The notes beneath the pieces are model-generated. The model saw nothing but the letters and a program-made list of their open reading frames with translations, was not told the DNA's origin and did no database searches. A DNA stretch of 64,000 nt, from positions 1 to 64,000 of the forward strand of contig CAVPSB010000019.1 of assembly GCA_963708025.1 (NCBI GenBank). The letters are read 5' to 3'. Origin of the DNA: an uncultured Candidatus Rokubacteria bacterium (GTDB taxonomy: Bacteria; Methylomirabilota; Methylomirabilia; Rokubacteriales; DASRDR01). Below, piece after piece: positions 3-55,408 of this stretch; position 1 is the stretch's first letter, and each line of letters begins with the position of its first letter. The position numbers and the translations under genes were made by a program.

Positions 3-1727
3 GTGCGGCGTGGCTGGCACCTCGCGGTCGCCGGCCCCGCCGGCGTCGCGGCGCCGGCCGTCAAGGCCCGGCTCGGCCGCGACGAGTGGATCCTGCGGGC
101 CTTCACGGTCGTCATCGGGCTCTACCTCCTGGTGGCCCTGGCCCTGCCGCTCGGGCTCATGCTCGCCAAGAGCCTGCAGAGCGGCCAGGGGGCGTTCGTC
201 GGCCTCGCCAACTACCGCCTGTACTTCGCCACGCCGGCCCTTGCCTACTCGATCTACAACAGCTTCGTGGTCGCGATCCTCAGCACGCTGATCACGGTCC
301 CGCTGGCCTTCCTCTACGCCTACGCGCTGACCCGGAGCTGCCTCCCGCTGCCGGGCGTGTGGAAGACGATCGCCCTGATCCCGATCCTGGTGCCCTCGAT
401 GCTGCCCGGCATCGCGCTGGTCTACCTCTTCGGCAACCAGGGGTGGCTCAAGGGCCTCATGCTCGGTTACTCGATCTACGGACCGATCGGCATCGTGATG
501 GCCGAGGTGTTCTTCACCTTCCCCCACGGCCTGCTCATCATGGTCACCGCGCTCGGGCTGACCGACGCCCGGCTCTACGAGGCCGCCATCGCGCTGCGGA
601 CCAGCCGCCCCCGGATGTTCTTCACGGTGACGCTGCCGGGCGCCCGCTACGGCCTGATCAGCGCGACCTTCGTGGTGTTCACCATGGTGATCACCGACTT
701 CGGCGCGCCGAAGATCATCGGCGGCCAGTACAGCGTGTTGGCCACCGACGTCTACAAGCAGGTGATCGGCCAGCAGAACTTCGCGATGGGCGCGGTCGTC
801 AGCGTCGTCCTGCTGATCCCGGCCGCGTTCGCCTTCGTCATCGACCGCGCGGCCCGCCGGCGTCAGGTGGCGCTCCTCTCGGCCCGGGCCGTCCCCTACG
901 CACCGAAGCCGAGCCGCCGCTTCGACCTCGCCATGGTCGCCTACTGCGCGGTGGTCGGCGTCTTCCTGGTCGGGATGATGGCGATCTCGCAGTACGCGGC
1001 CCTGGTGCGCTTCTGGCCTTACAACCTGGCCCTCACCCTCCAGCACTACGACTTCGACCGGCTGGGCACGATCGGGTGGGCGGCCTACTACAACTCGATC
1101 CGGCTGTCGCTCTACACGGCCCTCGCCGGCACCGGCCTCGTCTTCGTCGGCGCCTATCTCGTCGAGAAGGCCCGGGGGTTCACGGCCGGCCGGGCGGCCT
1201 TCCAGTTCCTGGCCATGACCCCCATGGCGGTCCCGGGGCTGGTCTTGGGCCTCGCCTACATCTTCTTCTTCAACCACCCGGCCAACCCGCTCAACGGGCT
1301 CTACCGGACGATGGCCCTGCTGGTGATCAGCACCATCGTCCACTTCTACACGGTGGCCCACCTGACCGCGCTCACCGCGCTCAAGCAGATGGACCCCGAG
1401 TTCGAGACGGTGTCGGCCTCGCTGAAGCAGCCGGTCTACAAGACCTTCTGGAGGGTGACGGTGCCGGTCTGCCTGCCGGCGATCCTCGACATCGCCATCT
1501 ACCTCTTCGTCAACGCGATGAGCACGGTGTCGGCCGCCGTCTTCCTCTGGGCCCCCGGGACCGAGCTGGCCTCGGTGGCGGTGCTGGACATGGACGACGC
1601 CGGCCAGACCGCGGCGGCGGCGGCGATGGCGATGATGATCTTCTACACGAACGTGGGCGCCCGCGTCCTCCACGTCGGGCTGAGCCGCTGGCTGGAGCGG
1701 CGGACCCAGGCCTGGCGGCGCCGGTAG
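3..1727 (+). CDS. ABC transporter fused permease, Fe3+/2-aminoethylphosphonate type (5' end may lie outside the window)
   Basis: Two hydrophobic permease halves, each with an EAA-like loop (LYEAAIALRTS, FETVSASLKQ). Confidence 0.85.
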   Translation: MRRGWHLAVAGPAGVAAPAVKARLGRDEWILRAFTVVIGLYLLVALALPLGLMLAKSLQSGQGAFVGLANYRLYFATPALAYSIYNSFVVAILSTLITVPLAFLYAYALTRSCLPLPGVWKTIALIPILVPSMLPGIALVYLFGNQGWLKGLMLGYSIYGPIGIVMAEVFFTFPHGLLIMVTALGLTDARLYEAAIALRTSRPRMFFTVTLPGARYGLISATFVVFTMVITDFGAPKIIGGQYSVLATDVYKQVIGQQNFAMGAVVSVVLLIPAAFAFVIDRAARRRQVALLSARAVPYAPKPSRRFDLAMVAYCAVVGVFLVGMMAISQYAALVRFWPYNLALTLQHYDFDRLGTIGWAAYYNSIRLSLYTALAGTGLVFVGAYLVEKARGFTAGRAAFQFLAMTPMAVPGLVLGLAYIFFFNHPANPLNGLYRTMALLVISTIVHFYTVAHLTALTALKQMDPEFETVSASLKQPVYKTFWRVTVPVCLPAILDIAIYLFVNAMSTVSAAVFLWAPGTELASVAVLDMDDAGQTAAAAAMAMMIFYTNVGARVLHVGLSRWLERRTQAWRRR

Positions 1728-1851
1728 CCCGTGGCCGATAACCTTCGCATCCCGTCGTCCTCGGTCGTCGCCCATCCTCGGCGTATGCGGCATACGCCTC
1801 CGGTGGGCGACTCCCTGCGTCCTAGGGCTGCTCGGTTCTCGACCACGGGCT
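1726..1851 (+). repeat. Structured palindromic element family 1, copy A (126 nt)
   Basis: Terminal stem agcccgtggccgataacc/ggttctcgaccacgggct; inner hairpin ggcgtatg-cgg-catacgcc; homologous to 19950, 45394 and 55256. Confidence 0.9.
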
Positions 1852-1858
1852 GAGAAAG

Positions 1859-3115
1859 ATGACGCGGCCGGCGGACGCCGAGATCACCATCGTCGGCGGC
1901 GGCGCCTTCGGCTGCGCCGTGGCCTACTTCCTGGCCCGGGCCGGCAAGCGCGACGTGGTGCTCCTGGAGAAGGACGAGCTGGCCTCGGGGACCACCAGCC
2001 AGGCGGCGGGGCTCGTCGGCCAGGTCCGCACCTCGCCGGCCCGGGTCCGCATCGCGATGTTCTCGGTCCGGACCTTCCGCGCCCTGGCCCGCGAGACGGG
2101 GCACGACCCCGACTACCGCGCGGTGGGGAGCCTGCGACTCGCCCTGACGCCGGCCCGCGAGGCGGAGTTCCGCCACATGGTCGCCGTGAGCCGGCGTGAG
2201 GGGCTCGAGGTCGACTTCGTGCCGCTCCGCGAGGTGGCCGAGCGCTTCCCGCTTCTGGATCTCGCCGGGGTGCGGGCGGCGCTCTGGTGCCCGAGCGACG
2301 GCTACCTCCAGCCCTACGGGCTCACCATGGCCTACGCCCACGGCGCCCGGGCTCTCGGCGTCCGCATTCACACCGGGACGCCGGTCCTCGGCCTCGTGTG
2401 CCGGGACGGCGCGATCGCCGGCGTCCGGACCGAGCACGGCGAGCTGCGCACCGAGACGGTGGTCGTCGCGGCCGGACCGTGGGCGGCGATGCTGGCCGCG
2501 ACGGCCGGCGTCGCGCTGCCGATCGTGCCGGTCCGCCACCAGTACTTCGTCACCGAGCCCGTCGCCGGCGTGAGCCCGGAGTTGCCCGTCTTGAGAATCC
2601 CCGACCTCCGCCTCTACGCGCGGGCCGAGGTGAACGGTCTGCTGGTCGGCGGGTTCGAGGCCGGGCCGGAGAGCCTCGACCCCCGCGAGCTCCCCGGCGA
2701 CTACCGGCGCTTCGCCGTCGAGCCGGAGTGGGAGCGGCTTTCGGGCTTCGGCCGGGACGGCGTGACGCTGCTGCCGGCCCTGGCCGAGGCCGGGGTGAGC
2801 GCGACGTTCCAGGGCTATCCCACGTTCACGCCCGACGGCCACTTCTGCCTGGGCCCGGTCCCGGGGATCCGCGGCCTCGTGATGGCTGCCGGCTGCTGCG
2901 CCCACGGCGTGTCGGGATCGGCCGGCCTGGGGACCACGGTGGCCGCGGCCATCCTCGACGAGGAGCCGCTGGTGGACCTGGGCCCGGTGCGGGCCGGGCG
3001 CTTCGCCGGCGCCGTCGAGTGGGACGGCGCCCGTCGCGCCGCCGAGCGCGTGTACGCCAACTACTACGGCCTGGCGCCGGAGCTCGCCGCTAGCCCCACC
3101 GCACCCACGTCGTAA
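1859..3115 (+). CDS. FAD-dependent oxidoreductase (sarcosine oxidase beta / dimethylglycine dehydrogenase N-terminal, DAO family)
   Basis: GGGAFG dinucleotide-binding motif, GTTSQAAG, TFTPDG. Confidence 0.85.
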   Translation: MTRPADAEITIVGGGAFGCAVAYFLARAGKRDVVLLEKDELASGTTSQAAGLVGQVRTSPARVRIAMFSVRTFRALARETGHDPDYRAVGSLRLALTPAREAEFRHMVAVSRREGLEVDFVPLREVAERFPLLDLAGVRAALWCPSDGYLQPYGLTMAYAHGARALGVRIHTGTPVLGLVCRDGAIAGVRTEHGELRTETVVVAAGPWAAMLAATAGVALPIVPVRHQYFVTEPVAGVSPELPVLRIPDLRLYARAEVNGLLVGGFEAGPESLDPRELPGDYRRFAVEPEWERLSGFGRDGVTLLPALAEAGVSATFQGYPTFTPDGHFCLGPVPGIRGLVMAAGCCAHGVSGSAGLGTTVAAAILDEEPLVDLGPVRAGRFAGAVEWDGARRAAERVYANYYGLAPELAASPTAPTS

Positions 3116-3413
3116 AGCGGCACGTGGTAAGGTTGCGCCGCTGGTCGGGGCTCCTTGCCCGAGGCAGTGCCTCGTGCTGAGCGCGCGTACTACCGCCTCG
3201 CGCTGGCTTCCAGCTGCTGAGTCCTCGGCGCGGGCCGAACCGGTCCCAATGGTGGCCCCCCTGGCACGCGGCGCTCGGGGTCGGCTATGCTCGCTGGGAC
3301 CCGGAGGAGGGCCACTCGGAGGGAAGTCTGGAGAGGGTGGTGCTTGCAGGGCATCGGGAGTCGGTCCAGACAGGAACGACCGGCAGAGGCCAGGACGGCC
3401 TCGGGAGAGAGCG

Positions 3414-4952
3414 ATGAGGCAATCGGGATGGAAGCGCCACGTCGCGTGGGTCCTCGCGGTCTTCGCGGTCGGCGGGCTGGCCGTCGTCCCATCGCGGACG
3501 GATGCGGCCGACCGGTCGAAAGACGACGTGGTCGTCGCGTTCGGCTCGCTCGGTGCATCCCTGGACCCGCAGATCCAGTTCTCGTCCCCCACGTACGCGC
3601 TGGTGCGTCACATGTTCGATCCGCTCGTCGAGTTCGACGCGGACAACAAGATCGTGCCGAAGCTCGCCGAGAGCTGGCGTGTGGTGGAGCCCTCGGCGTG
3701 GGAGTTCAAGCTCCGGCGGGGGGTGAAGTTCCACAACGGCGAGCCGTTCACTGCGGGCTCCGTGAAGTTCACCCTGGAGCGTGTCGTCAAGCCCGAGACC
3801 AAGTCACCGCAGGCGTTCGTCTTCGCCTGGCTCGACCGGGTGGACGTGATCGACCCGCAAACGGTCGTCATCCGCACCAAGGGACCCTACCGCCCGCTGC
3901 TGTCCATCCTGGCCCTGACCGACATGCTGGAACCCAAGGCGGCGGTGGACCCGGCCGCCCACGGCCTCAAGCCGGTGGGGACCGGCCCGTTCCGCTTCGT
4001 CGAGTACGTGCCGAACAGTCGCGTCGTGCTGGTCCGGAGCGACGATTACTGGGGGCCCAAGCCGAAGTTCCGCAACCTGACCTTCCGGGAGATCCGCGAC
4101 AACTCCACGCGGGTGGCGTCGCTGGAGACGGGCGAGACGGACGTGATCCACAACCCGCCGCCGGAGGACCTGGCGCGCCTGAGCGCCAATCCGAAGCTGG
4201 AGGTCAAGTGGGTGCCGGCCGCCCGCGCCCTGAACGTGAACTTCAACAGCCGGCGGTTCAAGGCGTTCCAGGACGTGCGGGTTCGGCAGGCGCTCAACTA
4301 CGCGGTGGACAAGGACGCGCTGGTCCGCTTCGTCTACAAGGGAATGAGCACGCTCCTCCGGGCACCGATGACCGAGGAGGTCGCCTTCTTCAACCCCAAC
4401 CTCAAGCCCTACCCGTACAACCCGGAACAGGCCAAGAAGCTGCTCGCGGAGGCCGGGTATCCGAACGGCTTCTCGATCGCCTTCGCCGGCCCGGTAGGGC
4501 GGTGGGTCCTCGACAAGGAGCTGAGCGAGGCCATCGTCGCGCAGCTCGGCAAGGTGGGGGTCAAGGCGAGCGTGACGGCCCTCGAGTTCGCGACGTACCT
4601 GGCCGAGCATGCGGCCTTCCTGAAGGGGGAGGGGCGGTTCGATGCCGTGCTGAGCGGATGGGGGGCCCTCACGCTGGATGCCGACTGGGCCCTCTGGTTC
4701 AACTTCCACACGCCGAACCGGGTGGGATACGCCAACCCCGAGGTGGACAAGCTCCTCGAGCAGGGACGGGCGGCCCTCGACCCGAAGGAAGCGGAGCGGA
4801 TCTACTGGAAGGCCCAGGAGATCGTCTGGGACGAGGCGGCCTGGGTGTGGCTCTTCAAGCACCCCGAGATCCTGGGCGTCAACAAGCGACTCAAGAACGT
4901 CGCCCCTCGGGCCAACGAGTACATCATGGTCCGGGACTCCTGGGTGGAGTGA
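3414..4952 (+). CDS. Peptide/nickel ABC substrate-binding protein (family 5)
   Basis: Signal peptide MRQSGWKRHVAWVLAVFAVGGL; LAESW, LRRGVKFHNG, GTGPFRF, VRQALNYAVD. Confidence 0.9.
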   Translation: MRQSGWKRHVAWVLAVFAVGGLAVVPSRTDAADRSKDDVVVAFGSLGASLDPQIQFSSPTYALVRHMFDPLVEFDADNKIVPKLAESWRVVEPSAWEFKLRRGVKFHNGEPFTAGSVKFTLERVVKPETKSPQAFVFAWLDRVDVIDPQTVVIRTKGPYRPLLSILALTDMLEPKAAVDPAAHGLKPVGTGPFRFVEYVPNSRVVLVRSDDYWGPKPKFRNLTFREIRDNSTRVASLETGETDVIHNPPPEDLARLSANPKLEVKWVPAARALNVNFNSRRFKAFQDVRVRQALNYAVDKDALVRFVYKGMSTLLRAPMTEEVAFFNPNLKPYPYNPEQAKKLLAEAGYPNGFSIAFAGPVGRWVLDKELSEAIVAQLGKVGVKASVTALEFATYLAEHAAFLKGEGRFDAVLSGWGALTLDADWALWFNFHTPNRVGYANPEVDKLLEQGRAALDPKEAERIYWKAQEIVWDEAAWVWLFKHPEILGVNKRLKNVAPRANEYIMVRDSWVE

Positions 4953-5041
4953 GGCTCCTTACCTGATCGTCGGGTAGGTCCCGGCCGGCTCGCGGAGTCT
5001 GTCGCCGCGGACCGGCCGGGACCGGACTCCGCATCCGCGGT

Positions 5042-5965
5042 ATGATCCGCTATCTCGCCTGGAAGGCGCTCCATGCGGTCCTGGTCCTGGCCGGCGTGTC
5101 GGTCGTCGTGTTCCTGCTCCTGCACCTGATCCCCGGGGATCCCGCGACGACGCTGCTCTCGGAGCACGCGACCCCGGAGGCGGTCCTCGCGCTGCGGACG
5201 CAGCTCGGCTTGGACCGGCCGCTCGCCATCCAGTACGTCAAGTACGTGTGGAGCTGTCTGCGCGGCGATCTCGGCACCTCGATCCGGTTCGGCATCCCGA
5301 ACCTGACGCTAGTGCTGCAGTACCTGCCGGCGACGGTGGAGCTGACCCTGGCCGCCCTGGTCGTCACCGTGACGATCGCGCTGCCGATGGCCCTCTGGTC
5401 TGCGCTCCACCGGGACTCGGCCGTCGACTATTTCGTCCGGATCGGCGCGCTCCTCGGCCAGTCCGTGCCGGGCTTCTGGCTGGGCATCGTCCTCATCATC
5501 CTCTTTGCCGTGCAGGCCCGCCTGCTTCCGACGAGCGGGCGGGGAACGCTCCTGCACCTGGTGTTGCCCAGCCTGACGCTGGCCGCCTACTTCGTGGCCC
5601 TCCTCGCCCGGGTGGCCCGCGCGGTCCTGGTAGAGGTCCTCGACGAGGACTATATCCGGACGGCGCGAGCCAAGGGAGTGAACCGGGCGGGCATCCTGCT
5701 CCGCCACGCCCTGGCCAACGCGCTCATCCCCGTCGTCACGCTGCTCGGGCTCCAGATCGGCACGCTCCTGGGTGGTGCCGTCATCACCGAGGCGGTGTTC
5801 GCCTGGCCGGGGATCGGCACCCTGGCCGTCCAGGCGATCTTCAACCGCGACTACCCCCTCGTGCAGGCGATCGTGCTGATCAGCGCCGTGATGTTCGTCG
5901 CCATCAATTACTGCCTCGATGCGCTCTACTGCGTCCTGGATCCCCGCATCCGGCTCGTCCACTAG
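5042..5965 (+). CDS. dppB: Peptide ABC permease, DppB-like
   Basis: PGDPA, GDLGTS, DYIRTARAKG, RDYPLVQ. Confidence 0.85.
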   Translation: MIRYLAWKALHAVLVLAGVSVVVFLLLHLIPGDPATTLLSEHATPEAVLALRTQLGLDRPLAIQYVKYVWSCLRGDLGTSIRFGIPNLTLVLQYLPATVELTLAALVVTVTIALPMALWSALHRDSAVDYFVRIGALLGQSVPGFWLGIVLIILFAVQARLLPTSGRGTLLHLVLPSLTLAAYFVALLARVARAVLVEVLDEDYIRTARAKGVNRAGILLRHALANALIPVVTLLGLQIGTLLGGAVITEAVFAWPGIGTLAVQAIFNRDYPLVQAIVLISAVMFVAINYCLDALYCVLDPRIRLVH

Positions 5966-6005
5966 CCAGCGTGGCAGTTCCGGCGCCCCGCCGGGCGGGG
6001 ACGGC

Positions 6006-6881
6006 ATGCCGGCGCCAGGGGCCGGCCGGTCGCGCGGACTCGCGGCGTCACCCGCCTTCCTCGTCGGGGGAGCGCTCGTGGTCCTGCTCGTCGGCTCGGC
6101 GCTCTTCGCTCCGCTGCTGGCACCTGGTGATCCGCTGGATGCCGACCTCCAGTTCCGGCTACGCCGCCCGTCCTGGAGCCTGGACGAGGGACGTCGGTTC
6201 CCGCTGGGGGCCGACGCTCAGGGGCGCGACGTGTTGAGCCGTATCCTGTACGGCGGGCGTGTCTCGCTCTTCATCGGGGTCGCCTCGGTCGTGATTAGCG
6301 GGGTGGTCGGAGTGGGGCTGGGTGTTCTCTCCGGCTATCTCGGGGGGCGGTGGGACGACGTGATCATGCGGGTGGCCGATGTCCAGCTGGCCTTCCCGTT
6401 CGTGCTCCTGGCCATGGCGGTGGTGGCCGCGCTGGGGCCCAGCATCTCGAACCTGATCGCGGTCTTCTTCCTGACGGGGTGGGTGGCCTCCACGCGGCTG
6501 GTGCGAGGCCAGGTCCTCACGATCCGGGAGCTGGCCTACGTGGAGGCGGCGCGCGCGCTGGGGCACCACCCGGCCGTGGTGATGCTGCGCCACGTGCTGC
6601 CCAACGTCGTCTCACCGATCGTGGTGCTCGCCTCGTTCGAGCTGGCCCGCATCATCCTCCTGGAGTCGGCGCTGAGCTTCCTGGGTTTGGGCGTCCAGGC
6701 GCCGACGCCGAGCTGGGGCAACATGCTCGGGGAAGGCCGGGAATACATGCGAACGGCCTGGTGGCTGTCGGTCTTCCCCGGCTGCGCCATCGTGCTGGCG
6801 GTGCTGGGAGTGAACCTGCTGGGTGACGGCCTCCGCGACCTCCTCGACCCGAAGGCGCGCCGCCTCGGGAAGCTCTGGTAA
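6006..6881 (+). CDS. dppC: Peptide ABC permease, DppC-like
   Basis: GRDVLSRILYGGRVSL, YVEAARALG, LSFLGLG, PSWGNML. Confidence 0.85.
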   Translation: MPAPGAGRSRGLAASPAFLVGGALVVLLVGSALFAPLLAPGDPLDADLQFRLRRPSWSLDEGRRFPLGADAQGRDVLSRILYGGRVSLFIGVASVVISGVVGVGLGVLSGYLGGRWDDVIMRVADVQLAFPFVLLAMAVVAALGPSISNLIAVFFLTGWVASTRLVRGQVLTIRELAYVEAARALGHHPAVVMLRHVLPNVVSPIVVLASFELARIILLESALSFLGLGVQAPTPSWGNMLGEGREYMRTAWWLSVFPGCAIVLAVLGVNLLGDGLRDLLDPKARRLGKLW

Positions 6882-6949
6882 CGGCGGCGACAGGCCCAGC
6901 GGTGCTGTACCCATCCTGACGGTCTGGTGGACGTATTCAATCAGATCGC

Positions 6950-7939
6950 TCAGCTTCGCGTCCCCACCGCCGAAGCAAGGAAAGCGTCGACCGCGTGGAC
7001 CCACGGCTCGGGCGAGGCCTTGTACAGGGACCCGTGCCGCGCGCCGCGGAACTCGACGAACTCCCTCGGGCCGCCCAGCTGGTCGAATACCCGCCGTGCC
7101 TGTTCACGGGTGGCGCGAGCATCGTCGCTGCCGTGGAGCATCAGGACCGGAGCCGTGATGTTCCGGGCGTAGCCTGACGGGTTGTGGCGGTGAGCGGGGA
7201 AGCCCATCTGAACGCCTCCCCAGAAGCCGAGCAGCTCGGCGAGAGGAGATGGCGGCAGACCCATCGCGCGGAATCGGTTCCTGATGGCGTTGAACATCTC
7301 GTCATAGAGACCCTCGACGATCACGGCCGATGCGTTGACCGGGGAGGTGGAGACCGCCCGGACGATCGACACGGCCCCCATGGACTGCCCGTAGAGGATC
7401 AGCGGCGAGGAGGTCCGAAGATCGTGTCGGACATGGGCCGCGGCCGCGATCACGTCAGCCGCCTCGTAGTAACCGATGGACGTCCAATCGCCGGCCGAGC
7501 CACCGTGACCGCGGTGATCGACGAGGAGAGTCGAGAACCCAAGATCCCGGAATGCCTTTGCCTCGTCGAGTAGCGCCGACCTGGTGCCGGCGTAGCCATG
7601 GAACAGGACGACCACGCCGCGCTCCGTCGGATGGGGAGCCCACCACGCCTCCAGATCGAAGCGATCCGCGGTCGTGAAGCGATGCGTCGTGAAGGACGAC
7701 GCCTGATCTGCCGGGAGCTCCGTGTTCCTGGGCCGTGGCAGGTCGATCCCGACCAGGAGAACGTACGCCTTCTCGTACCAGCCGAGCGTGTCCGGCGGCT
7801 TGGTGCGCTCCCGGGCGCCGGCGAAGTGGAGCATGGACCGGGCGTGGAAGTACGCGACGGCGTTCAGGAGAACGACCGCGACCAGCCCCGCGGCCAGGAG
7901 GGCGTGAAGCTTGCGGCGGCTGAGCATTGGTCCCCTCAT
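6950..7939 (-). CDS. Alpha/beta hydrolase with N-terminal membrane anchor
   Basis: FHGYAG, GQSMG nucleophile elbow, HGSDD, ARHG. Confidence 0.85.
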   Translation of the reverse strand: MRGPMLSRRKLHALLAAGLVAVVLLNAVAYFHARSMLHFAGARERTKPPDTLGWYEKAYVLLVGIDLPRPRNTELPADQASSFTTHRFTTADRFDLEAWWAPHPTERGVVVLFHGYAGTRSALLDEAKAFRDLGFSTLLVDHRGHGGSAGDWTSIGYYEAADVIAAAAHVRHDLRTSSPLILYGQSMGAVSIVRAVSTSPVNASAVIVEGLYDEMFNAIRNRFRAMGLPPSPLAELLGFWGGVQMGFPAHRHNPSGYARNITAPVLMLHGSDDARATREQARRVFDQLGGPREFVEFRGARHGSLYKASPEPWVHAVDAFLASAVGTRS

Positions 7940-8478
7940 TATCTCGCCCCGTGGTCGCAGCCGTGTCCTAGACCTTGCTCGCGACTCTCTCCTGGCCGGT
8001 GCACGTTCTCCTTGACGAGCAGCTGCCGGTAGACCTCGCTCGGGAAATCCGCGGCCTCGCCGGTCCTATTCCCCACACCCTCGATGACGTGCCGGCTGGG
8101 CATCTCGGATTCATGACGAGGCCCGTGCGCGAGTGAGTGAGTGAACGGGGAAGAGTGGCGGCGGCGCCCCGGGTGGGGAATCTGCGCCCCACCGGGCCGG
8201 CGAGACGACCACGCGGAACGATCCCGGCTGGGGTGTTTCCCTCAGGAGCTTGGATCCCCTGCCGGGCGTTCCGCGTGTTCCGCAGCAGGAGGATCCGGGC
8301 GGGGCTGCCTGCCCGTTTGCCAGTGACCGTCGAATCGGCACGTGCGGCCCATTCGTTCGCGAGGTAGAACGCAGCCCCGAATTGTGGGCAGCGCGCCCAA
8401 TCAATTCCAGCGCGCGAGATCAAGCGCTCCGGCACTCGAGTGCTCCGTGAGCCCGACACCTCTGGGGCACACGGTTCG

Positions 8479-8494
8479 CGGCATTAACCTTGCT
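8479..8494 (+). promoter_or_regulatory. Putative sigma54 (-24/-12) promoter
   Basis: cGGcattaaccTTGCt = GG-N10-GC with TTGC, about 85 nt upstream of the ATG at 8579. Confidence 0.5.
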
Positions 8495-8578
8495 TCGGCA
8501 AGATGCCTGAGGGACGGTCATGCATCGCCACAGGGCGGATCGCCAGGGGAGAGGCCCCTGAGGCTTCGGGAGCCAGAC

Positions 8579-9694
8579 ATGACCAGGCGCGTGGCGGTCT
8601 TGCTGACAGCGGTAGTCCTGGGCATGGCTTGCGCCGGCCCGGCGGCGCGGGACCGGGATGTGGCCCAGTCGCCAGCGAGCGCGGGCCCAGGCGCGGGGTC
8701 TCATCCACGCTGGCGGGCCGGACAGGATCTCGGCGGGGCGGACCTGCGTGGGGCGGATCTTCGGGGGGAGAACCTGGCTGGCGCCAACCTGAGCGGGGCC
8801 AACTTGAGCGGGGCCAACCTTGCACGGGCGAACCTCGCAGGAGCAAGGCTCAGGGCCGCGAGCTTGCGCCGAGCGTCTCTGGAGCGCGCCGACTTGAGCG
8901 AGGCTGATCTGACGTGGGCCAACTTGAGCGAGGCGACCCTCGCCGGTGCCCGACTCGATCGTGCGAGCCTGGCTTCCGCCGACCTGAGAGGGGCGAGCCT
9001 GAGCGAAGCCGACCTTCGTGACGCATCGCTAGGTTATGCCGATCTCAGAAGGGCATCGCTGGCAGGGGCCGACTTGCGTGGCGCCAAGCTCTTCGGCGCC
9101 AACCTCGAAGGAGCGAACCTGCGCAACGCCAACCTGGAGGGCTCGGCTCTCGAGGGCGCCGACTTGACCAACGTGGATCTCCGGGGGGCACGCTTCGGTC
9201 TCCTCGGACCGAGAGGTGCGTCCTCGGGTGCAGGCATACCGCCGGAGGCGCTGGAGGAGCTCGCGCCGGGCACGACAGCACGCGCGGACGTGCTCGCGGG
9301 GCTCGGGGAGCCAGCCAGTCGGCTCCTCGATGGACGCATGCTGGGCTACAGATGGGCCCGGGATCAGAGGGGTTTGCTGTTCATGACTCAACTGGGTTCC
9401 ACGCGGCTGCTCCTGACCTTCGATGCCTCGGGTCGCCTGGAGACGCGCATGTGGGCGGTTGGCGGCAAGGCCGACTTTCTGGTTGATGGACGAACGACGA
9501 AGCGGGAGGTGGTGATGGCTCTCGGGCTCCCGTCGGGCCAGTTCGAGGGCGAGCGGATCCTGACCTATCGGTTGACGCCGGACCGGAAGGCCGTCGGGAG
9601 AGAGATCGGCTGGGACGAGGCACCTTACAGCCTCGTGCTCATGTTCGACGACGGCCATGTCCTGGTGCGTCATCGCTTGGTCGAGGTTCGCTGA
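8579..9694 (+). CDS. Lipoprotein with pentapeptide repeats and two C-terminal SmpA/BamE-like domains
   Basis: Lipobox-like LGMAC; about 30 A[DNS]LxG-type pentapeptides; then PGTTARADVLAGLGEP and GRTTKREVVMALGLP. Confidence 0.8.
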   Translation: MTRRVAVLLTAVVLGMACAGPAARDRDVAQSPASAGPGAGSHPRWRAGQDLGGADLRGADLRGENLAGANLSGANLSGANLARANLAGARLRAASLRRASLERADLSEADLTWANLSEATLAGARLDRASLASADLRGASLSEADLRDASLGYADLRRASLAGADLRGAKLFGANLEGANLRNANLEGSALEGADLTNVDLRGARFGLLGPRGASSGAGIPPEALEELAPGTTARADVLAGLGEPASRLLDGRMLGYRWARDQRGLLFMTQLGSTRLLLTFDASGRLETRMWAVGGKADFLVDGRTTKREVVMALGLPSGQFEGERILTYRLTPDRKAVGREIGWDEAPYSLVLMFDDGHVLVRHRLVEVR

Positions 9695-9713
9695 TGGATC
9701 GATGGATCGGACC

Positions 9714-10115
9714 ATGACTTGGAGGGTCCTTCCCCTCGCATTGGGGGTCGCGCTCTTCTCGGAGGCATGTGTCGCCGTGCCGGTCGCGGGGCGCACGTCC
9801 GGTACCAGCCGCGCGAAGGAGGAGGGAGTCGAGCGGCTTCTCCAGACGGGCGTGACGACGCGGGAAGAGGTGCTGTTTGCCTTCGGGGAGCCGGACGACG
9901 TCGTAGGCGTAGGCCAGGGGACCTTTCGCTACGTGGGCCGCGAGTGGAAACGATGGGTTGGAATATTGCTCATAAACCCCGCCACCATTGTTGGGCCGAT
10001 GCCCTTCTGGACCGAGAAGGAAGTTGCGGACTACACCTTGGAAATCGAGTTTGACGAGCGCGGAATCGTCAAGCGTGTCGAACGGCAGGCGTTGGGTGCG
10101 CGGCCGCCCAAGTGA
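9714..10115 (+). CDS. Small SmpA/BamE-like putative lipoprotein
   Basis: Hydrophobic leader ending in Cys (LFSEAC); TGVTTREEVLFAFGEPD; IEFDERGIV. Confidence 0.65.
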   Translation: MTWRVLPLALGVALFSEACVAVPVAGRTSGTSRAKEEGVERLLQTGVTTREEVLFAFGEPDDVVGVGQGTFRYVGREWKRWVGILLINPATIVGPMPFWTEKEVADYTLEIEFDERGIVKRVERQALGARPPK

Positions 10116-10259
10116 CGCGTGGCGGCCGGGCAGCGCGGCTCGATCAGGCCGCGGACGTCGATTTCGACCCGCCTTCCCGTCTGATCCTGTCCATAGAACC
10201 GATGCTGAACCCAGCCGGGCACCGGGGGCGCCGGGACCAGAGGCGCAATCTGAGCACAC

Positions 10260-10895
10260 GTTTCGCATGTGGTTGACGAGAGCGGCGGCGACTAACTTCG
10301 CGACGCTTTCAAACCCTTGGCGGATCAACTCTGGCGTCTCGAGATACTCCTCTATCGAGTGCTTGGGCGTTCCTCCGTTCATGCTCGTGATGTATTCATG
10401 TCGCTGCCAGACAACTGAACCATCCTTCCGAACGAGCGAGGCTATCACCCCGAGCATCGGCCGCACTTCCGTGGAAAATGCCCACGTAGCGCCAAAGCCG
10501 AACATCGGCACTTCCAGCTTGACCTGAGCGTCACCGCCTTCCGGAACGATCGAAAAGAACCCGGCCCTGCCCAACTCTGCCGCAAACTGCTCTCGGACGA
10601 TCTGCCCGACGTCGATCTGCCTCCGTCGCATCGCACCGACTAACTCGATCCCAGGGTCTTGTCGGTGCGGCGGCCGACCTGTGTAGAGCATGGCGCCAGG
10701 GATTGTGACGTTCTTGCCGATTGACACCGACTGAATAGACTCCCTGGCCTGTTTGGTGATGGGGATACTGGTGATGGGACTACAGCCACCAGCCCAGCAC
10801 GTTACGACCAGAAAGGGCATGACCGACCAAGATCGTCGAAAGAAGCTGCTGATAGAAGGCACCGTGATCGGCTTTTTGCGGCGGGTAGTCAACAT
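10260..10895 (-). CDS. Hypothetical putative lipoprotein (3' end uncertain; the ORF reads on to 9639)
   Basis: Leader ending WAGGC; protein-like sequence until ...ALVNHMR, then low-complexity read-through. Confidence 0.5.
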
Positions 10896-11115
10896 GACGC
10901 CCCTTCTCGGTCCTCGCGGGACTCGACGTCTGGTTTTCCTGCGGGCTAGGTCCGGCGAGGTCGTCCTGGTCAGCGCCCTGATCGTAGAAGCTCCTCGGCG
11001 GCTGACCGGCCGGGGATTGAGGCTCGTCCGACCGGTCCACCGCCGCCCGGCTCTCCATCGAGAGCCACCGAGTCCACCTCGTAGTTATGGCCGTGCGCCG
11101 TCTTCCGTAGCGTCG

Positions 11116-11498
11116 TCAGCGTGGGATGTTCACAAATACCTCGTCCGAGAATGCCGTCGTGGACGCGCAGTTGCGGTCGTGGCGACGTCCCGTGAGGCAT
11201 ACAGTGAGACTGTCGGCAGTCTTCGTGACCTTCCTCACTAGCGCCCCGGCTGGTTCGGCACATGTAACGGACCATGGAGCAGGCCGCAGTCTGCATTGTC
11301 GGGAATGTCCGTCGAGAATGGCGTCGTACTGCTAATTGGAACACTTGGCGAATGGAGGGGCGTCACGGTTCCGGTGAACTTGATGGGCGCCCCGGATGAC
11401 GTGACCTCGACCCCAAGCGTGTAGTTCCAATTGTATCCGCCGTCACACCCCGGAAGCAGTAGCAGAAGGAGCACAGCGCTCGCCAAGAGTACCTCCAT
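11116..11498 (-). CDS. Small putative lipoprotein with a probable frameshift near 11275
   Basis: MEVLLASAVLLLLLLPGC lipoprotein signal; a plausible continuation SVTCAEPAGALVRKV...FVNIPR* lies in another frame. Confidence 0.45.
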
Positions 11499-11989
11499 CC
11501 GGCGCGTGCGAATGCTTGCCCATAGCCGCCCGTGCTCATCTCGCAGTTCCTGGTTCATCCCGCCTCCTTCGAGACGACGGCCGCAGGACCGTCTAGGCCA
11601 GTAACCCGCACCACACCGACACGGCCGTTCAGCGGGAATGTTCCGTCGGCGCGGTGAGCCCACCCCACTGCTCGCAAGGACCATGCCCACGTGGCAAGTT
11701 CCAGTTGCGCAAGGCGATTCGGGCTGTGGGTTGTAGGAAGGATGTGGGGCAGGACTATCCCAACGGGGTCAGGTGCGGCCCAGGTCGTGCAGGGCCCACT
11801 CGCTTCTACGGCCCGATGTCCCCAGGAGTTCGCCGATCAGGTCCTCCAAGGCCACCACCGGCCCACTCGATGAGGGGTCTGGAGGCTCTTGAAAACGGAT
11901 TCGCTAGTGGCGTGTTCTGAGGATCACGGTCACATCACGCGGACCACGCCGGGCCACCTTCAGAGAGTCGGTGACCAGTAGTCGCGATC

Positions 11990-13234
11990 TCAGGACGGGA
12001 TGCCGACCGGCCGGGCGACGGCGGGCCCGCCGGCCTGGACCCGATTGATGAGCACGAGCCCGACGACGAACATGAGGCCGACGGTCAGGATGGCGAGCCG
12101 CTGGTTGCCGCCCGTCGCCAGCGAGACGGCGCCGAAGATCGTCGGGCCGATGATCGCCGCCGTCTTCCCGACCAGCGAGTAGAAGCCGAACATCGCGGCC
12201 TCCCGGCCGGGCGGGATCAGGCTGGCCATGAATGCCCGCGCGGCGGCCTGGATGGCGCCCAGCCCGGTGCCGGCCAGGATGGCCACCAGCCAGAACTCCC
12301 ACTTGGCGGTGACGACGTAGGCGGCCACCGCCACCAGGCACCACTGGACGAGGGTGATCCGCACGACGAACTTCGGGCCCCGCGTGTCGATCGGGCGGGC
12401 CCAGACCCAGGCGCCGGCCAGCGCCGAGAGCTGGACGACGAAGTAGAGGAGGATGACCTCGGGCGTCGTGAACCCGAGCGTGTGGCCCGCGAACACCGAG
12501 GAGAAGAAGACGACGGTGTTGATGCCGTCCTCGAAGAAGAGGTAGGCGAGCAGGAAGCCGCGCAGGTCGGGGAGCCTCACGATCTCACGCAGCGTCGCCC
12601 AGGCTCCGGCGAACCCGACTCGCACGGCCTGACCCACGCTCGACGCGCCGGGCCGGTCGGGTGGGAGGTAGACGAGGGCCGGCACCGCGAAGACCCCGTA
12701 CAGCAGGGCGGCCGACAGGAAGGCGCCGCCGTAGTGCTCGTGGAGGGCGAAGGGGAGCGCGACCGCGAGGGCGACGGCCGACCCCGCGTAGCCCACCGCG
12801 AAGCCGTAGGCGGACAGGCGGCCCCGCCACTCGGGAGAGGCGAGGTCCGGCAGGTAGGCGTTGTAGTAGACGATGGCCGCCTCGAAGCCGACCGTGCCCA
12901 CCACCGCCAGCACGAACCCCCAGATCACGTCGCCCGGGCCGACGGTGGCCATCAGCGCGGTCGCGACCACCGAGGCGTAGGTCAGCAGGCCGAGGAACCG
13001 CTTCCGGACCCCGGCGTGGTCGGCGATGGCGCCGAGCGGTGGCGAGCCGAGGGCCACCAGGAGCATCGACGTCGTCACCGACAGGCCCCACCAGAAATCG
13101 CCCTGGCCGCGCTCGTTGCCGACGACGGACAGCGCGTAGTACTTGGAGTAGACGGTGGCGGGGATGACGGCGACGTAGGCCGAGTTGGCGAAGTCGTAGA
13201 GCGTCCAGGCGACGATCGGCTTCCGGTCCGCCAC
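11990..13234 (-). CDS. MFS transporter, UMF1/ATG22-like
   Basis: AWTLYDFANSAY, YYNAYLPDL, FGFYSLVGK; 12-TM pattern. Confidence 0.9.
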   Translation of the reverse strand: MADRKPIVAWTLYDFANSAYVAVIPATVYSKYYALSVVGNERGQGDFWWGLSVTTSMLLVALGSPPLGAIADHAGVRKRFLGLLTYASVVATALMATVGPGDVIWGFVLAVVGTVGFEAAIVYYNAYLPDLASPEWRGRLSAYGFAVGYAGSAVALAVALPFALHEHYGGAFLSAALLYGVFAVPALVYLPPDRPGASSVGQAVRVGFAGAWATLREIVRLPDLRGFLLAYLFFEDGINTVVFFSSVFAGHTLGFTTPEVILLYFVVQLSALAGAWVWARPIDTRGPKFVVRITLVQWCLVAVAAYVVTAKWEFWLVAILAGTGLGAIQAAARAFMASLIPPGREAAMFGFYSLVGKTAAIIGPTIFGAVSLATGGNQRLAILTVGLMFVVGLVLINRVQAGGPAVARPVGIPS

Positions 13235-13292
13235 CCGGGCACTGTCTCGCGCCGCGCCGGCCGAAGTCAAGCGTGCTAGAATCCACCCCGCC

Positions 13293-14432
13293 ATGCGCGC
13301 GCTGATCGCCGGCGTTCACGAGTTCCCGGAGCGGAAGACCACGCGGAGCGCGCTGGAGATCCAGGCGATCTCCGCCCGGGCCGCCCTGGAGGACGCCGGG
13401 CTCGGCAAGCGCGACGTGGACGGCTACTTCACCGCCGCCGGGGCCGGCGGGCTGGGTCCGCTGCCGCTCCTCGACTACCTGGACCTCAACCCCCGCTACG
13501 TCGACGGCACCACGATCGGCGGCGCCTCGTTCGTCACCCACGTCCACCACGCGGCGGCGGCGATCGCCGAGGGGCGGTGCCGGGTCGCCCTCGTCACCTA
13601 CGGGAGCACCGCCCGCTCGCAGGACGTGGCGGTGGGGACCCGTGGCCGCGCGGCCGGTGACTACGTGGATCAGTTCGAGGCCATCCACGGCCCGACGACC
13701 GTCGCCCTCTACGCGCTCGTCGCCCAGCGGCACATGCACGTCTACGGCACCACCGGCGCCCAGCTCGCCGCCATCGCGGTCGCCTGCCGCCGCCACGCGG
13801 GGCTGAACCCGGACGCCCTCTACCGCGATCCGATCACCGTGGACGACGTGCTCGCCTCGCCGGTGATCGCCTCGCCGCTCCACCTCCTCGACTGCTGCGT
13901 CATCACCGACGGCGGCGGCGCGGTCGTGGTCGTCCACCCCGACCTGGCCCGGGACCTGGCCCGCCCGCCGGTCGCGATCCTCGGCGCCGCCGAGGCGGTC
14001 GCCCACACCGCGGCCGGGCACCGCGACTACCTGGTCTCGGCGGCGGCCCAGAGCGGCCCTCGCGCCCTCGCCGAGGCGGGGGTGAAGCACGACGCGATCG
14101 ACATGGCGATGATCTACGACTCGTTCACGATCACCGTGCTCGTCACGCTGGAGGACCTCGGCTTCTGCCCGAAGGGAGAGGGCGGGCGCTTCGTCGAGGG
14201 CGGCCGGCTCGAGCTGGGCGGCCAGCTCCCGATCAACACCGACGGGGGCGGCCTGTCGAGCAATCACCCCGGCATGCGGGGCATCTTCCTCGTGATCGAG
14301 GCGGTCCGCCAGCTCCGCGGCGCGGCCGGCCCCCGCCAGGTGCCGGACTGCCGGACCGCCCTGGTCCACGGGACGGGTGGGGCCCTCGGCGCTCGCCACT
14401 CGGGGGCGACGCTGATCCTGGCGCGCGCTTGA
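13293..14432 (+). CDS. Thiolase-superfamily protein (SCP-x/lipid-transfer, Ltp2-like)
   Basis: DCCVITDGGGA, IYDSFT, NTDGGGLSSNHPG; no Cys at the canonical acyl-enzyme position (TIGGAS). Confidence 0.85.
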   Translation: MRALIAGVHEFPERKTTRSALEIQAISARAALEDAGLGKRDVDGYFTAAGAGGLGPLPLLDYLDLNPRYVDGTTIGGASFVTHVHHAAAAIAEGRCRVALVTYGSTARSQDVAVGTRGRAAGDYVDQFEAIHGPTTVALYALVAQRHMHVYGTTGAQLAAIAVACRRHAGLNPDALYRDPITVDDVLASPVIASPLHLLDCCVITDGGGAVVVVHPDLARDLARPPVAILGAAEAVAHTAAGHRDYLVSAAAQSGPRALAEAGVKHDAIDMAMIYDSFTITVLVTLEDLGFCPKGEGGRFVEGGRLELGGQLPINTDGGGLSSNHPGMRGIFLVIEAVRQLRGAAGPRQVPDCRTALVHGTGGALGARHSGATLILARA

Positions 14433-14446
14433 CAACGGAGCGTCCG

Positions 14447-16469: not shown

Positions 16470-16530
16470 GACACCCTGTGTCAACCCTCTCGTTCCGGCG
16501 ACCTCGTACCACGTCGGGACTGCGGGGCGC

Positions 16531-16572
16531 CCCCCCTCCCCCCGGCGGGTGGGGAGGGGTCGGGGGTGGGGG
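16531..16572 (+). repeat. C-rich/G-rich hairpin repeat, family 2
   Basis: cccctcccc..ggcgggt..ggggagggg-tcgggggtggggg; nearly identical to 18693. Confidence 0.8.
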
Positions 16573-16581
16573 TGGACCCCA

Positions 16582-16992
16582 ATGAGCGCGTACGCCAAGC
16601 CGCTCCCCGAGGTCACGCCGGAGTCGCGGCCGTTCTGGGAGGGGTGCCGCCGCCGCGAGCTCCTCATCCAGCACTGCCGGGCGTGCGGCGCGCTCCAGCA
16701 CTACCCGCGCGGCGTCTGCGCCGCGTGCTGGAGCGGCGACCTCGACTGGCGCGCGAGCTCCGGTCGCGGCGCCGTCTACACCTTCACCGTCGTCCGCCGG
16801 AGCCAGGCGCCCGGGTTCAAGGACGCGCTCCCCTACGTGCTCGCGTACGTCGAGCTGGCGGAGGGGGTCCAGATGCTGACGACCCTCGTGGACGTGGACC
16901 CGGCGCGGGTCGCCATCGGGATGCCCGTGGAGGTCGTCTTCGAGGACGTGACGCCGGACGTCACCCTCCCGCGCTTCCGTCCGATCGGCTAA
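16582..16992 (+). CDS. DUF35 Zn-ribbon/OB-fold protein (ChsH2-like)
   Basis: PFWEG, CRAC..YPR..CAAC, IGMPVEVVF. Confidence 0.9.
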   Translation: MSAYAKPLPEVTPESRPFWEGCRRRELLIQHCRACGALQHYPRGVCAACWSGDLDWRASSGRGAVYTFTVVRRSQAPGFKDALPYVLAYVELAEGVQMLTTLVDVDPARVAIGMPVEVVFEDVTPDVTLPRFRPIG

Positions 16993-17005
16993 GATAGCGC
17001 GTGCC

Positions 17006-18637: not shown

Positions 18638-18692
18638 ACAGACGTGAAGCAGTCCCCTCGCCCGGGTAGCCTGGAGCTGGCAGTGGCAGGCA

Positions 18693-18735
18693 CCCCTCCC
18701 CCCGGTGGGTGGGGAGGGGCCGGGGGTGGGGGAGG
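18693..18735 (+). repeat. C-rich/G-rich hairpin repeat, family 2
   Basis: cccctcccc..ggtgggt..ggggagggg-ccgggggtgggggagg. Confidence 0.8.
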
Positions 18736-18754
18736 CTCCGAATAGGAGGGGCTC

Positions 18755-19966: not shown

Positions 19967-20173
19967 CCTTCGCATCCCGTCGTGCTTCTTCCCGGCCGGG
20001 ACGCGCTCGGCCTGCGTCGATCGGACGGCCTTCGGCCTGTGGGCGCCCGTCCCGACCTCCGGGGTCGCCGCCCATCCTCGGCGTATGCGGCATACGCCTG
20101 CGGTGGGCGGCTCCCTGCGTCCTCCGGACGGCCTTTGGCCTCTGGGGGCTGCTCGGTTCTCGGCCCGGCACAC
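19950..20173 (+). repeat. Structured palindromic element family 1, copy B (with two inserted hairpin modules)
   Basis: gtgtgccgggccgataacc/ggttctcggcccggcacac terminal stem; same core as copy A. Confidence 0.9.
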
Positions 20174-20212
20174 TTCAATGTGTCGCCTCCCGGGGGTGAG
20201 TGGGGAGGTCCG

Positions 20213-41043: not shown

Positions 41044-41054
41044 CCGGCGCCTCG

Positions 41055-45315: not shown

Positions 45316-45393
45316 CTCTCATCGCGACGGTCCGTCCGAAGGGCCTCAGACCGTTTGAAGCGACGATGTGACAGCAGACGACTCAAGTTCTCG

Positions 45394-45519
45394 GGGGCGG
45401 GGCCGCGGAGCGAGCAGCGCTAGGACGCAGGGAGTCGCCGACCGCAGGCGTACTCCGAGTACGCCGAGGATCGGCGACGACCGAGGACGACGCGATGCGA
45501 CGCTCATCGGCCCCGCCCC
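45394..45519 (-). repeat. Structured palindromic element family 1, copy C (126 nt)
   Basis: Reverse complement aligns with copy A with compensatory changes. Confidence 0.9.
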
Positions 45520-45590
45520 TGGCCGTTCGGCGGATGCGGGCCCTTGCCCCGGGGCGTATCGTGGCACTCAGTTTCGTGAGAGCGAATCGG

Positions 45591-51758: not shown

Positions 51759-51769
51759 CGCCCGGCCCG

Positions 51770-53640: not shown

Positions 53641-53653
53641 AAGGAGAGATCCG

Positions 53654-54526: not shown

Positions 54527-54922
54527 TCAGCGCAGGCGATGGATGCCCGGTACGCCGTCGAAGCCGGCGTCGAAGCTCAGGATCCGGGCGATGCCGTGGC
54601 GCTCCATGACCGCAACGTGGAGGGCGTCGCGCGCAGACAGCTGCCGTTTGCCCAGGACGATCGCTTTGGCTCGCTCCACGATGGCCAGGCTCGACCGGGA
54701 GCACCTCGTCGACCACACCGAGGAGGGCGTCGAAGGCGGGCTGGATCGCGTCTCGGCGGTCGATCGCGACATAGCGGTGCAGGATCTCTGTAGCACCTCG
54801 GCGTCGGTGACGAGGCGCTCGCGCTCGGTGATGCAGCGCTCGAGCAGTCGCTGGGCGTCCGCCTTGTGCGCATGCGTCGCGCCCACGAGGTACATGGGGA
54901 TGTTCGAGTCGACGAGGATCAC
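54527..54922 (-). CDS. vapC: VapC-type PIN toxin (frameshifted)
   Basis: [32 protein letters not shown]. Confidence 0.8.
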
Positions 54923-55175
54923 CCGCGGGGCTCGGCGACGTAGCCGCGCTCGATGTCGGTGAGAATCTGCTGGATATCCTCCGATGGGAAGGCATGGCGG
55001 GCGGCGGCCCGGACAGACCGCGATCTTCGTGCCGAGATCGCCGACGGGCTCCGCCGGCGCGCGGCTCGCAGCGCCTGACGGACCCATTCGGCCACGGTCA
55101 TGCGCTGGGCGCGGGCTGCGCGCTGGATCCCCGGAGCTCGGCGTCGTCCAGGAGTACCTGCAGGCGCCTGCTCAT
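54919..55175 (-). CDS. Antitoxin (RHH-like; frameshifted)
   Basis: [30 protein letters not shown]; 4-nt overlap with the toxin start. Confidence 0.75.
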
Positions 55176-55210
55176 GTGCTGAGCATAAGTGACTCGATCG
55201 AGATGAGTCA
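55169..55210. promoter_or_regulatory. Paired inverted repeats, putative toxin-antitoxin operator
   Basis: tgctca-N5-tgagca over the start codon and tgactc-N9-gagtca just upstream. Confidence 0.55.
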
Positions 55211-55255
55211 ACCGACCTGAGCACCGAGCCACCGGCGGTTGCGCAGGTCATTGGT

Positions 55256-55408
55256 CGCAGGCGTACTCCGAGTACGCCGAGGATCGGCGACGACCGAGGA
55301 CGACCATAGGTCGGGACGGACGCCCCCAGGCCGAAGGCCGTCCGATCGACGTAGGCCGAGCGCGTCCCGGCCGCGATGAACGATGCGACGCTCATCGGCC
55401 CTGCCCCC
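55256..55408 (-). repeat. Structured palindromic element family 1, copy D (3'-truncated, with the copy B module)
   Basis: Core as in copy C plus cggccgggacgcgctcggcct..ggccttcggcct..cgtcccgacct. Confidence 0.85.

Follow-up and report, generated by a model that had tools for sequence, protein, structure and literature searches.

The short structured repeats dispersed through this Candidatus Rokubacteria genome are probably a non-autonomous MITE lineage of the IS630/Tc1-mariner type, belonging to the Methylomirabilota (Rokubacteria, uncultured bacteria of soils), and the core of the element would be kept by constraint on its fold together with exchange between copies. The repeats came to attention in a preliminary description of a 64,000-nt stretch of DNA, hereafter the window, in which four copies (A to D) of a ~126-nt element were reported, and all four were located in the sequence (Table 1). 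The reported length holds for A and C but fails for B, which reaches 224 nt through the insertion of one 54-nt and two 21-nt modules, and for D, which contains the same modules as B and has no recognizable left arm. Genome-wide collection yielded 224 two-armed copies, 222 of them outside called genes, and the element, which is common among the Rokubacteria, was found in 93 of 121 genomes across the phylum. Among the papers listed in a literature search none describes this family, though a MITE survey of 183,232 genomes may contain it (PMC11602168).

Table 1. Copies of the repeat in the window and their component parts.
Feature	Position	Strand	Description
Copy A	1725/1726-1852	+	tailless basic hairpin; starts at TAG stop 1725-1727 of ABC-permease gene
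Copy A, fold strand	1725..1852	-	conserved fold on this strand
Copy B	19950-20173	+	224 nt, modules inserted
54-nt side-hairpin module (M2) of copy B	19994..20058	-	contains 21-nt GAA-loop module, ~20024-20038
Second 21-nt module of copy B (M1, AAA-loop variant)	20124..20147	-	approximate bounds
Copy C	45394-45520	-	basic hairpin, majority subfamily
Tail of copy C	45345-45393	+	decayed, ~50 nt; degenerate CTAG at its end = far MITE end
Copy D	55256-55410	-	apical hairpin + M2 (55308-55372) containing M1 (55328-55342) + right arm
Left part of copy D	55202..55255	+	decayed; tail-like word at 55202-55212

The five stem variants and the fixed internal-loop words proved to be as first described, and a MITE-like mobile repeat with a preserved fold and fixed loops, one of the readings offered at that time, is supported by the larger data set. 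Specifically, among the 51 copies of basic length in this genome, Watson-Crick pairs occupy 1973 of 2039 paired cells, and conservation is greater in unpaired columns (0.948) than in paired columns (0.905). Covariation likewise holds in an alignment of 82 copies from several genomes, in which 96.8% of cells are paired, two-sided changes are present in 19 of 34 pairs, and the covariation score is 0.380, as compared to 0.033-0.047 in slid alignments and 0.106 in shuffled ones (0 of 500 shuffles reach the observed value, a result inflated by the relatedness of the sequences). The folding strand requires revision: while A and C do fold at a z of about -6 on the strand originally presented, the opposite strand folds better, with copy A reaching a z of -10.4 under an RNA model and, under a DNA model, -7.0 as opposed to -4.7. 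Wobble pairs also favor the strand opposite the mRNA, by 31 to 10 in one count and, in a second, by 42 G-T to 9 A-C.

The placement of the repeats is strongly biased. Among the 222 intergenic copies, 198 share a single orientation behind the 3' end of a gene, with 174 of these lying within 4-15 nt of it; copy C is among the 24 that are not so oriented. TAG is the upstream stop codon for 124 of 174 copies, as compared to 1706 of 5860 stops genome-wide, while the base that precedes TAG is variable (CTAG 78, GTAG 46 and others 70, n = 194 copies) and 47 of the 194 copies end at TGA instead of TA. Within the window, an acyl-CoA dehydrogenase gene takes its final codons and its TAA stop (19964-19966) from copy B, and a TPR gene on the - strand has its TAG stop (55408-55410) where copy D abuts it. 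Many copies carry a ~50-nt tail that closes with a second CTAG, such that tail-bearing copies have CTAG at both ends. CTAG is itself rare in this genome, with 2458 sites as compared to 21,460 expected, and 649 of the 2458 are stop codons. A plain MITE of ~105 bp, perfect in its IS630-like ends, is also present in the genome in 28 copies, 24 of which lie on a called stop codon; since this plain MITE behaves likewise, the stop-codon adjacency of the structured repeat is attributed to TA/CTAG targeting, and would be a by-product of that targeting and not a regulatory design.

The link to IS630 is a new observation and comes from the ends of the element. Terminal repeats of complete-looking IS630 elements are similar to both ends of the element as it occurs in other families of the phylum. 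Four IS630 elements were found (L427, L430, L439 and L440, the first three being the complete-looking examples); they encode a helix-turn-helix and a DDE_3 domain, and their closest plasmid matches carry an IS630 annotation. IS630 elements with matching ends are flanked by CTAG in G006, G024, G030 and G055, and the end of the plain MITE differs by 1 nt from the terminal repeat of the G006 and G024 elements. Of 110 related copies of the structured repeat starting with TAG, 58 have a stop-side end that agrees with the plain-MITE end at no fewer than 11 of 16 positions, as compared to 1.1% of 1317 control stops, a rate lowered by the filtering of the controls, and the best identity with the ends of L439 is as high as 15/16. 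At the far end, 41-50 nt beyond the inner arm, a match of at least 10/16 is present in 11 of 30 copies, as compared to 3.4% of random windows, the 30 having been preselected from related genomes for an IS630-like stop-side end; even in these 11 the terminal inverted repeats are degenerate.

This likeness holds for the family, and most copies of this genome are without IS630-like ends: the end-match threshold is reached by 0 of 116 majority-subfamily copies and by 7 of 25 minority copies starting with TAG, and the ends no longer form inverted repeats. A tblastn search of this genome for the cognate transposase was empty, a domain search gave one broken and weak DDE_3 match, and close homologs of the matching transposase are present in only 7 of 251 genomes. 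Likewise, the ends of the young copies in G003 are dissimilar, and no IS630 element with those ends was found. These findings weigh against the IS630 reading.

Comparison of insertion sites supports mobility. One orthologous site is filled in eight genomes and empty in three, the empty state changing three times on the tree of the flanking genes; each end of a filled site carries TAG or a close variant of it, and the empty sites, in source genomes 87-92% identical in the flanks, fit duplication of TA, the dinucleotide duplicated by IS630-family elements (PMC2170065). In G003, six young copies share 98-99% identity, have CTAG at their borders and lie in unrelated flanks. Of 48 syntenic rows compared with relatives, 10 are filled here, figures that are indicative only as the rows include duplicates and paralogs, and paralog pairs within the genome provide one empty site, which is imprecise. 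Across positions 250-20249 in four DNA runs, no joint among those listed skips copy A or B. Locus-specific direct repeats add a complication: 9 of 306 copies score at least 13, where 1.5 are expected, and 16 of 56 minority copies have direct repeats of at least 7 nt, where 2.7 are expected. Such long repeats, extending up to 51 bp, do not fit a 2-bp duplication.

Several other readings of the insertion sites were set aside. A longer duplication, comprising CTAG and further bases, is weak (7/14 at one position in relatives, p 0.02, and none in this genome). The reading of one-sided truncation as evidence for retro- or rolling-circle copying was rejected, given that the HMM count is confounded by modules and the motif count (12 vs 18) includes chance hits; any truncation bias is explained by protection from the adjacent gene. 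Copying of the outer stem from the target was not borne out: outer stems differ among species at one orthologous site, and at the locus of copy A in a relative (L106), where the outer-stem stub alone remains, a deletion stub is the better reading.

In the model that we favor, the full unit would run from one TA to another through a terminal repeat, the folded core, an inner inverted copy of the repeat, the ~50-nt tail and a second terminal repeat at the far end. The long hairpin would form as the stop-side terminal repeat pairs with its inner copy and encloses the core, and insertion of the unit at the TA of CTAG would be carried out in trans by an IS630 transposase. Given the scarcity of CTAG and the rebuilding of TAG by insertion at TA, insertions at TAG stops would presumably be harmless and survive. 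In this genome, most insertions would be old and their ends drifted, while the core and its GNA-capped modules would be kept by constraint on the fold of the purine-rich strand and by copy-to-copy exchange, most likely because a protein recognizes a cruciform or a single DNA strand in its folded state. What had been an orphan REP-like repeat would thereby become a testable system with a candidate transposase clade.

The conservation of the core is the portion of the data that invites competing explanations, as it is puzzling that the supposedly neutral interior of a MITE should keep a covarying fold and fixed loops phylum-wide while its ends decay. The core is ~97% identical among copies with tails that are 67% identical, and at the orthologous site the core shows an identity of 0.90-0.95, fourfold sites 0.69-0.89 and the tail 0.45-0.62, a difference that is significant in four of the five comparisons tested; at a single-copy locus, constraint was not significant (117/125 vs 129/148, p 0.10). 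One explanation, which we regard as unlikely, is that the core constitutes an independent genetic element, a single-stranded DNA structure read on the purine-rich strand by way of GNA mini-hairpins and tandem G-A pairs, traveling as a passenger in MITE shells of different transposase families (IS630-type here, IS1182-like in G066), swapping modules with unrelated repeats, and copied by an undescribed protein or pathway acting on single-stranded DNA. If true, both the long target duplications and a core ~10x less diverged than its tail would be explained. Module loops conform to GNA in 244 of 260 cases, and mini-hairpins of this type are far more stable in DNA than in RNA (PMC13037366); of 554 M1 modules, 370 are found elsewhere than in the 224 paired copies, many of those listed being in an unrelated repeat family; core-like sequence occurs in a different, IS1182-like shell in G066; and none of 16 copies shares its core length with its close tail neighbor, a result weakened by a star-like history.

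These observations, along with the variable direct repeats of 7-51 bp, support a version in which the lineage began with IS630 but its present tailless and asymmetric copies, like the 21-nt and 54-nt modules, would be spread by another mechanism that uses the single strand in its folded state, whether gene conversion, copying primed at a nick, or some ssDNA-acting enzyme. We consider this version to be just as doubtful, as searches for such an enzyme brought up no candidate (no Y1 gene was found in this genome, no reverse transcriptase was found, and the Y2 and IS110 loci are without copies of the element), and the orientation of copies tracks genes, with no replication-strand bias beyond gene orientation (61/103 vs 1582/2720, by a weak skew proxy). 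Whether or not a protein reads the fold determines the wider significance of the lineage: if one does, the repeats would offer a new handle on the upkeep of small repeats in bacteria, and if none does, they are one more lineage-specific MITE.

The placement of copies behind genes, the conservation of the core above synonymous sites at the orthologous locus, and the orientation-dependent action of ERIC on mRNA stability (PMC2229807) could together suggest a core domesticated as RNA, acting behind stops in the processing or stability of mRNA in the manner of ERIC, or else as an antisense RNA, and conserved by host selection on the transcript. This is improbable, more so than the foregoing proposals. 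Specifically, a structured RNA read from the mRNA strand is disfavored because the conserved fold lies on the opposite strand, the mRNA-sense strand folding worse and the wobble counts favoring the other; moreover, the element is absent at the same site in 3 of 11 genomes. Also against an RNA identity, and in line with the initial failure to recognize a named family, a search of the window against Rfam returned no match at the gathering score, and a search of five related loci returned one chance-level miRNA match (25 bits, cut-off 73).

Least tenable is mobilization of a REP/REPIN-type repeat by a RAYT (Y1 HUH) transposase, a proposal akin to the HUH-type mobilization first suggested and now largely refuted, for despite a TAG foot directly before the hairpin, a modular, BIME-like mosaic build and Y1 genes in 14 of 41 relatives, there is no fixed GTAG tag, no Y1 gene was found in the six genomes of the family with the most copies (this one, G001, G002, G003, G005 and G006), 18 Y1 loci of relatives are not flanked by copies (bar one 36-nt fragment ~1.3 kb from one gene), and the ends match the repeats of IS630, a DDE family.

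Other potential mobilizers fared no better. No link to the element was found for HUH, reverse transcriptase or IS110 loci, and the terminal repeats of IS701 and IS4/IS5-type loci differ from those of the element. A DNA self-search formed part of the analysis, and one multicopy family, which we take to be DUF222/HNH-like, has ends unrelated to the element. Viral contigs contained no match to the core pattern, one chance match to a looser pattern, nine matches to the terminal motif (none with a transposase by eye) and no relative of the IS630 protein.

Known repeats share some, and differ in other, features of the present element. The RUP of Streptococcus pneumoniae, attributed to IS630-Spn1, is likewise non-coding, ~100-200 bp in length, of high copy number, intergenic and bounded by TA, with its IS630 link also inferred from terminal-repeat similarity (PMC2229807). 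In contrast to RUP, the present element has a high GC content and lacks symmetry, its hairpin arising from a second, internal copy of one terminal repeat, and has ends decayed in this genome, a covarying core and inserted modules. ERIC/IRU (127 bp) is similar in length, in its imperfect long hairpin and TA flanks, in its position downstream of genes and in the importance of orientation (PMC2229807, PMC3184786), whereas here the conserved fold lies on the strand opposite the mRNA. YPAL/RU-2 of Yersinia is similar in having inverted repeats in its interior and target duplications of varying length (3-26 bp in YPAL, 7-51 bp in a minority here), yet YPAL is described as lacking TA termini (PMC2229807), while here the majority of copies terminate in TA(G) and relatives are IS630-like. 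GTAG REPs, REPINs and BIMEs with RAYT are similarly palindromic and mosaic and often supply a TAG stop, but are 20-40 nt in length as compared to 110-250 nt here, where a fixed GTAG tag and a RAYT association are both missing (PMC3733652).

A final observation concerns the decayed left part of copy D, which may derive from a tail, as suggested by an 11-nt match. A general role of the tail as a promoter was set aside, the sole consensus match being the one at D. There, a promoter-like site (55211-55182, - strand) has a -35 hexamer overlapped by this tail-like word and precedes two genes, one of them small and the other encoding a PIN domain.

All four hairpin repeats of the preliminary description were found in the sequence of the window as described, and the length of ~126 nt ascribed to each does not apply to copies B and D, both of which contain modules. 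Additionally, the left arm of copy D is decayed. Within the genome assembly (8.17 Mb, 71% GC, 49 contigs), BLAST searches with the four window copies yielded 332 merged loci, part of them modules only, while 291 left and 286 right arm motifs delimit 224 paired copies with usual core lengths of 111, 132, 153, 165, 186, 207 and 228 nt, which correspond to 111 nt plus multiples of 21 and 54. No named family had been recognized, and a search of Rfam likewise gave no match. Similarly, none of the papers listed in literature searches contains a description of the element, and a large MITE survey makes no mention of the lineage in its main text (PMC11602168).

Coordinates of the hairpin repeats and associated features (C, contigs of the genome holding the window; L, loci from related genomes)
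Feature	Location	Strand	Remark
Hairpin copy A	window 1726-1852	+	
Hairpin copy B	window 19950-20173	+	
Hairpin copy C	window 45394-45520	-	
Hairpin copy D	window 55256-55410	-	
Second repeat family	window 16460-16582; 18631-18749		C-run/G-run hairpin
21-nt GAA-loop module	window 34998-35031		inside second (C-run/G-run) repeat family
Small gene + PIN-domain gene	window 54527-55211	-	toxin-antitoxin-like pair
Plain MITE, examples	C19:122078-122184; C19:160633-160739		perfect IS630-type terminal repeats
~1.55-kb element, examples	C13:513911-515451; C28:4408-5948		
IS110 copies	C13:384521-385450; C15:72531-73460		
Two-ORF IS630 elements	L427:237-1395; L430:1360-2514		A-run at ORF overlap

The covarying stems attributed to the repeat are borne out by 51 basic copies of this genome, in which 1973 of 2039 paired cells are Watson-Crick. 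Across 82 copies from several genomes, two-sided changes occur at 19 of 34 pairs and the covariation score is 0.380, as compared with 0.106 for shuffled and less than 0.05 for slid alignments. In the basic copies of this genome, conservation is higher in loop columns than in stem columns. Wobble pairs of the G-T type, the cells of which are not independent of one another, favour the R strand, the complement of the strand first read (Y), by 31 to 10 in copies of this genome and 42 to 9 in a second count; R is antisense to the mRNA.

Based on our own gene calls for this genome, the element is associated with stop codons and CTAG: 198 of 222 intergenic copies follow the 3' end of a gene in the Y orientation, 174 of these 198 at a distance of 4-15 nt from the stop, and 12 copies, copy B among them, supply the stop codon themselves. 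The upstream stop is TAG in 124 of the 174 copies versus 1706 of 5860 genome-wide, and of 21,460 expected CTAG sites only 2458 are present, 649 of which are stops. In the majority subfamily, a second CTAG closes a tail of ~50 nt, the central word of which is matched in 74 of 155. Six ~190-bp copies in the related genome G003 share 98% identity over the tail and 99% over the core; they have CTAG at their borders, and their flanks are unrelated. Presence and absence are seen at one orthologous junction among 15 genomes of genus g5, with the element present in 8 (one of them truncated at a contig end and another carrying an internal deletion), absent in 3, and the junction not shown in the other 4. 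Empty sites consist of a stop, 4-6 nt and a start, and are scattered over the flanking-gene tree (three changes); at filled sites TAG or a near variant recurs at the tail end, which is compatible with duplication of TA, short of strain-level proof.

Mobilization by a HUH or RAYT enzyme, one of the options first raised, finds little in its favour: neither Y1 nor RT genes were found in this genome, Y1 genes occur in 14 of 41 relatives without flanking copies of the element, Y2 and IS110 genes also lack such copies, and the element does not qualify as REP/RAYT. Two identical-looking IS110 copies each interrupt a copy of a palindromic repeat other than the element. Separately, a ~1.55-kb element with about a dozen copies in the genome has a conserved structured 5' region and encodes one protein family, which we take to be DUF222/HNH-like.

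In the wider family, the ends of the element are similar to those of IS630. In covariance-model matches from other families, the core is the same and the far end is similar to the stop-side end, and a motif search located the stop-side end motif in 58 of 201 genomes. The largest expansion among the 201, with 189 terminal-motif matches, is in G029. A plain ~105-bp MITE with perfect terminal repeats has 28 copies in the window's genome, 24 of them on a called stop codon, and its repeats differ by one base from those of ~1150-bp IS630 elements recovered from G006 and G024 by a transposase-family search of copy-rich genomes; relatives with similar terminal repeats occur in G030 and G055. The right terminal repeat of the two-ORF elements at L427 and L430 provides a stop codon, and the A-run at their ORF overlap is likely a programmed frameshift.

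Compared with the G030 repeat, hairpin copies grade from 15 of 16 identical positions to unrecognizable. An end match of at least 11/16 is present in 58 of 110 TAG-starting related copies versus 1.1% of 1317 control stops from which motif-bearing stops had been removed, and a matching far end in 11 of 30 copies, picked for a matching stop-side end, versus 3.4% by chance; the hairpin left arm is itself an inner inverted copy of the stop-side repeat. Counting against the IS630 link, only 7 of the 25 minority copies that start with TAG attain this threshold in the genome holding the window, and none of the 116 majority copies does. No homologue of the matching transposase was found there, and close ones turn up in 7 of the 251 genomes.

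IS630-family elements insert at TA, which is duplicated (PMC2170065, where a CTAG preference is mentioned only in the title of a reference). The link between RUP and IS630-Spn1 was drawn from the same kind of end similarity (PMC2229807). The element is filed here as derived from the IS630 MITE group, and not as a clean member, because neither two-sided terminal repeats nor a 2-bp duplication is firm in this genome's copies. An IS630 transposase acting in trans would insert it at TA by cut-and-paste, insertions at stops would survive because TAG is rebuilt, and the core may be maintained via recognition of the R-strand fold and exchange between copies; in its way of working the element resembles RUP- and ERIC-type IS630 MITEs.

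An IS630 origin does not explain the core constraint, the R-strand bias, the modules or the long direct repeats. Firstly, the core is conserved in excess: twelve tail-bearing basic copies of this genome are 96.7% identical in the core versus 67.3% in the tail, the plain MITE interior averages 83%, and at the g5 orthologous site core identity is 0.90-0.95 versus 0.69-0.89 at fourfold sites (significant in 4 of 5 comparisons), with a non-significant trend in the same direction at a single-copy locus in another order. Part of this identity could be owed to gene conversion or repeated insertion of similar copies. Secondly, the small module hairpins have GAA, GCA, GTA or GGA loops on R in 244 of 260 cases, and with GNA-type mini-hairpins the DNA form is far more stable than the RNA form (PMC13037366). 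Of the 554 copies of the 21-nt module, 370 are not part of the 224 paired elements; many of them are located in another repeat family and some form tandem arrays. A similar core occurs in G066 between IS1182-like ends flanked by CTAG (L324, L329, L338), and an element with a DUF772 transposase and IS1182-like terminal repeats in G003 (L348). Lastly, long direct repeats of up to 51 bp flank 9 of 306 copies (1.5 expected), and direct repeats accompany 16 of 56 minority copies (2.7 expected). At L132 and L172, the element sits among the opening codons of a housekeeping gene, presumably ahcY-like and rpsJ-like, whose start is restored by a duplication of 51 bp or 29 bp.

A core pattern search with one genome per species matched at least 90 stretches; of the 80 matches listed, only two bear a title other than Rokubacteria, Methylomirabilota or 'uncultured bacterium'. 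Viral contigs searched with the core pattern yielded no match. Matches to the covariance model are present in 93 of 121 genomes examined from the phylum, other orders included, with the weaker matches taking in variant families.

Contigs from close relatives skip the second-family copies in the window, so presence and absence are visible there at near-strain level. The small gene beside the PIN-domain gene has no Pfam match, and the promoter-like -35 hexamer of the pair overlaps a tail-like word of the decayed copy D.
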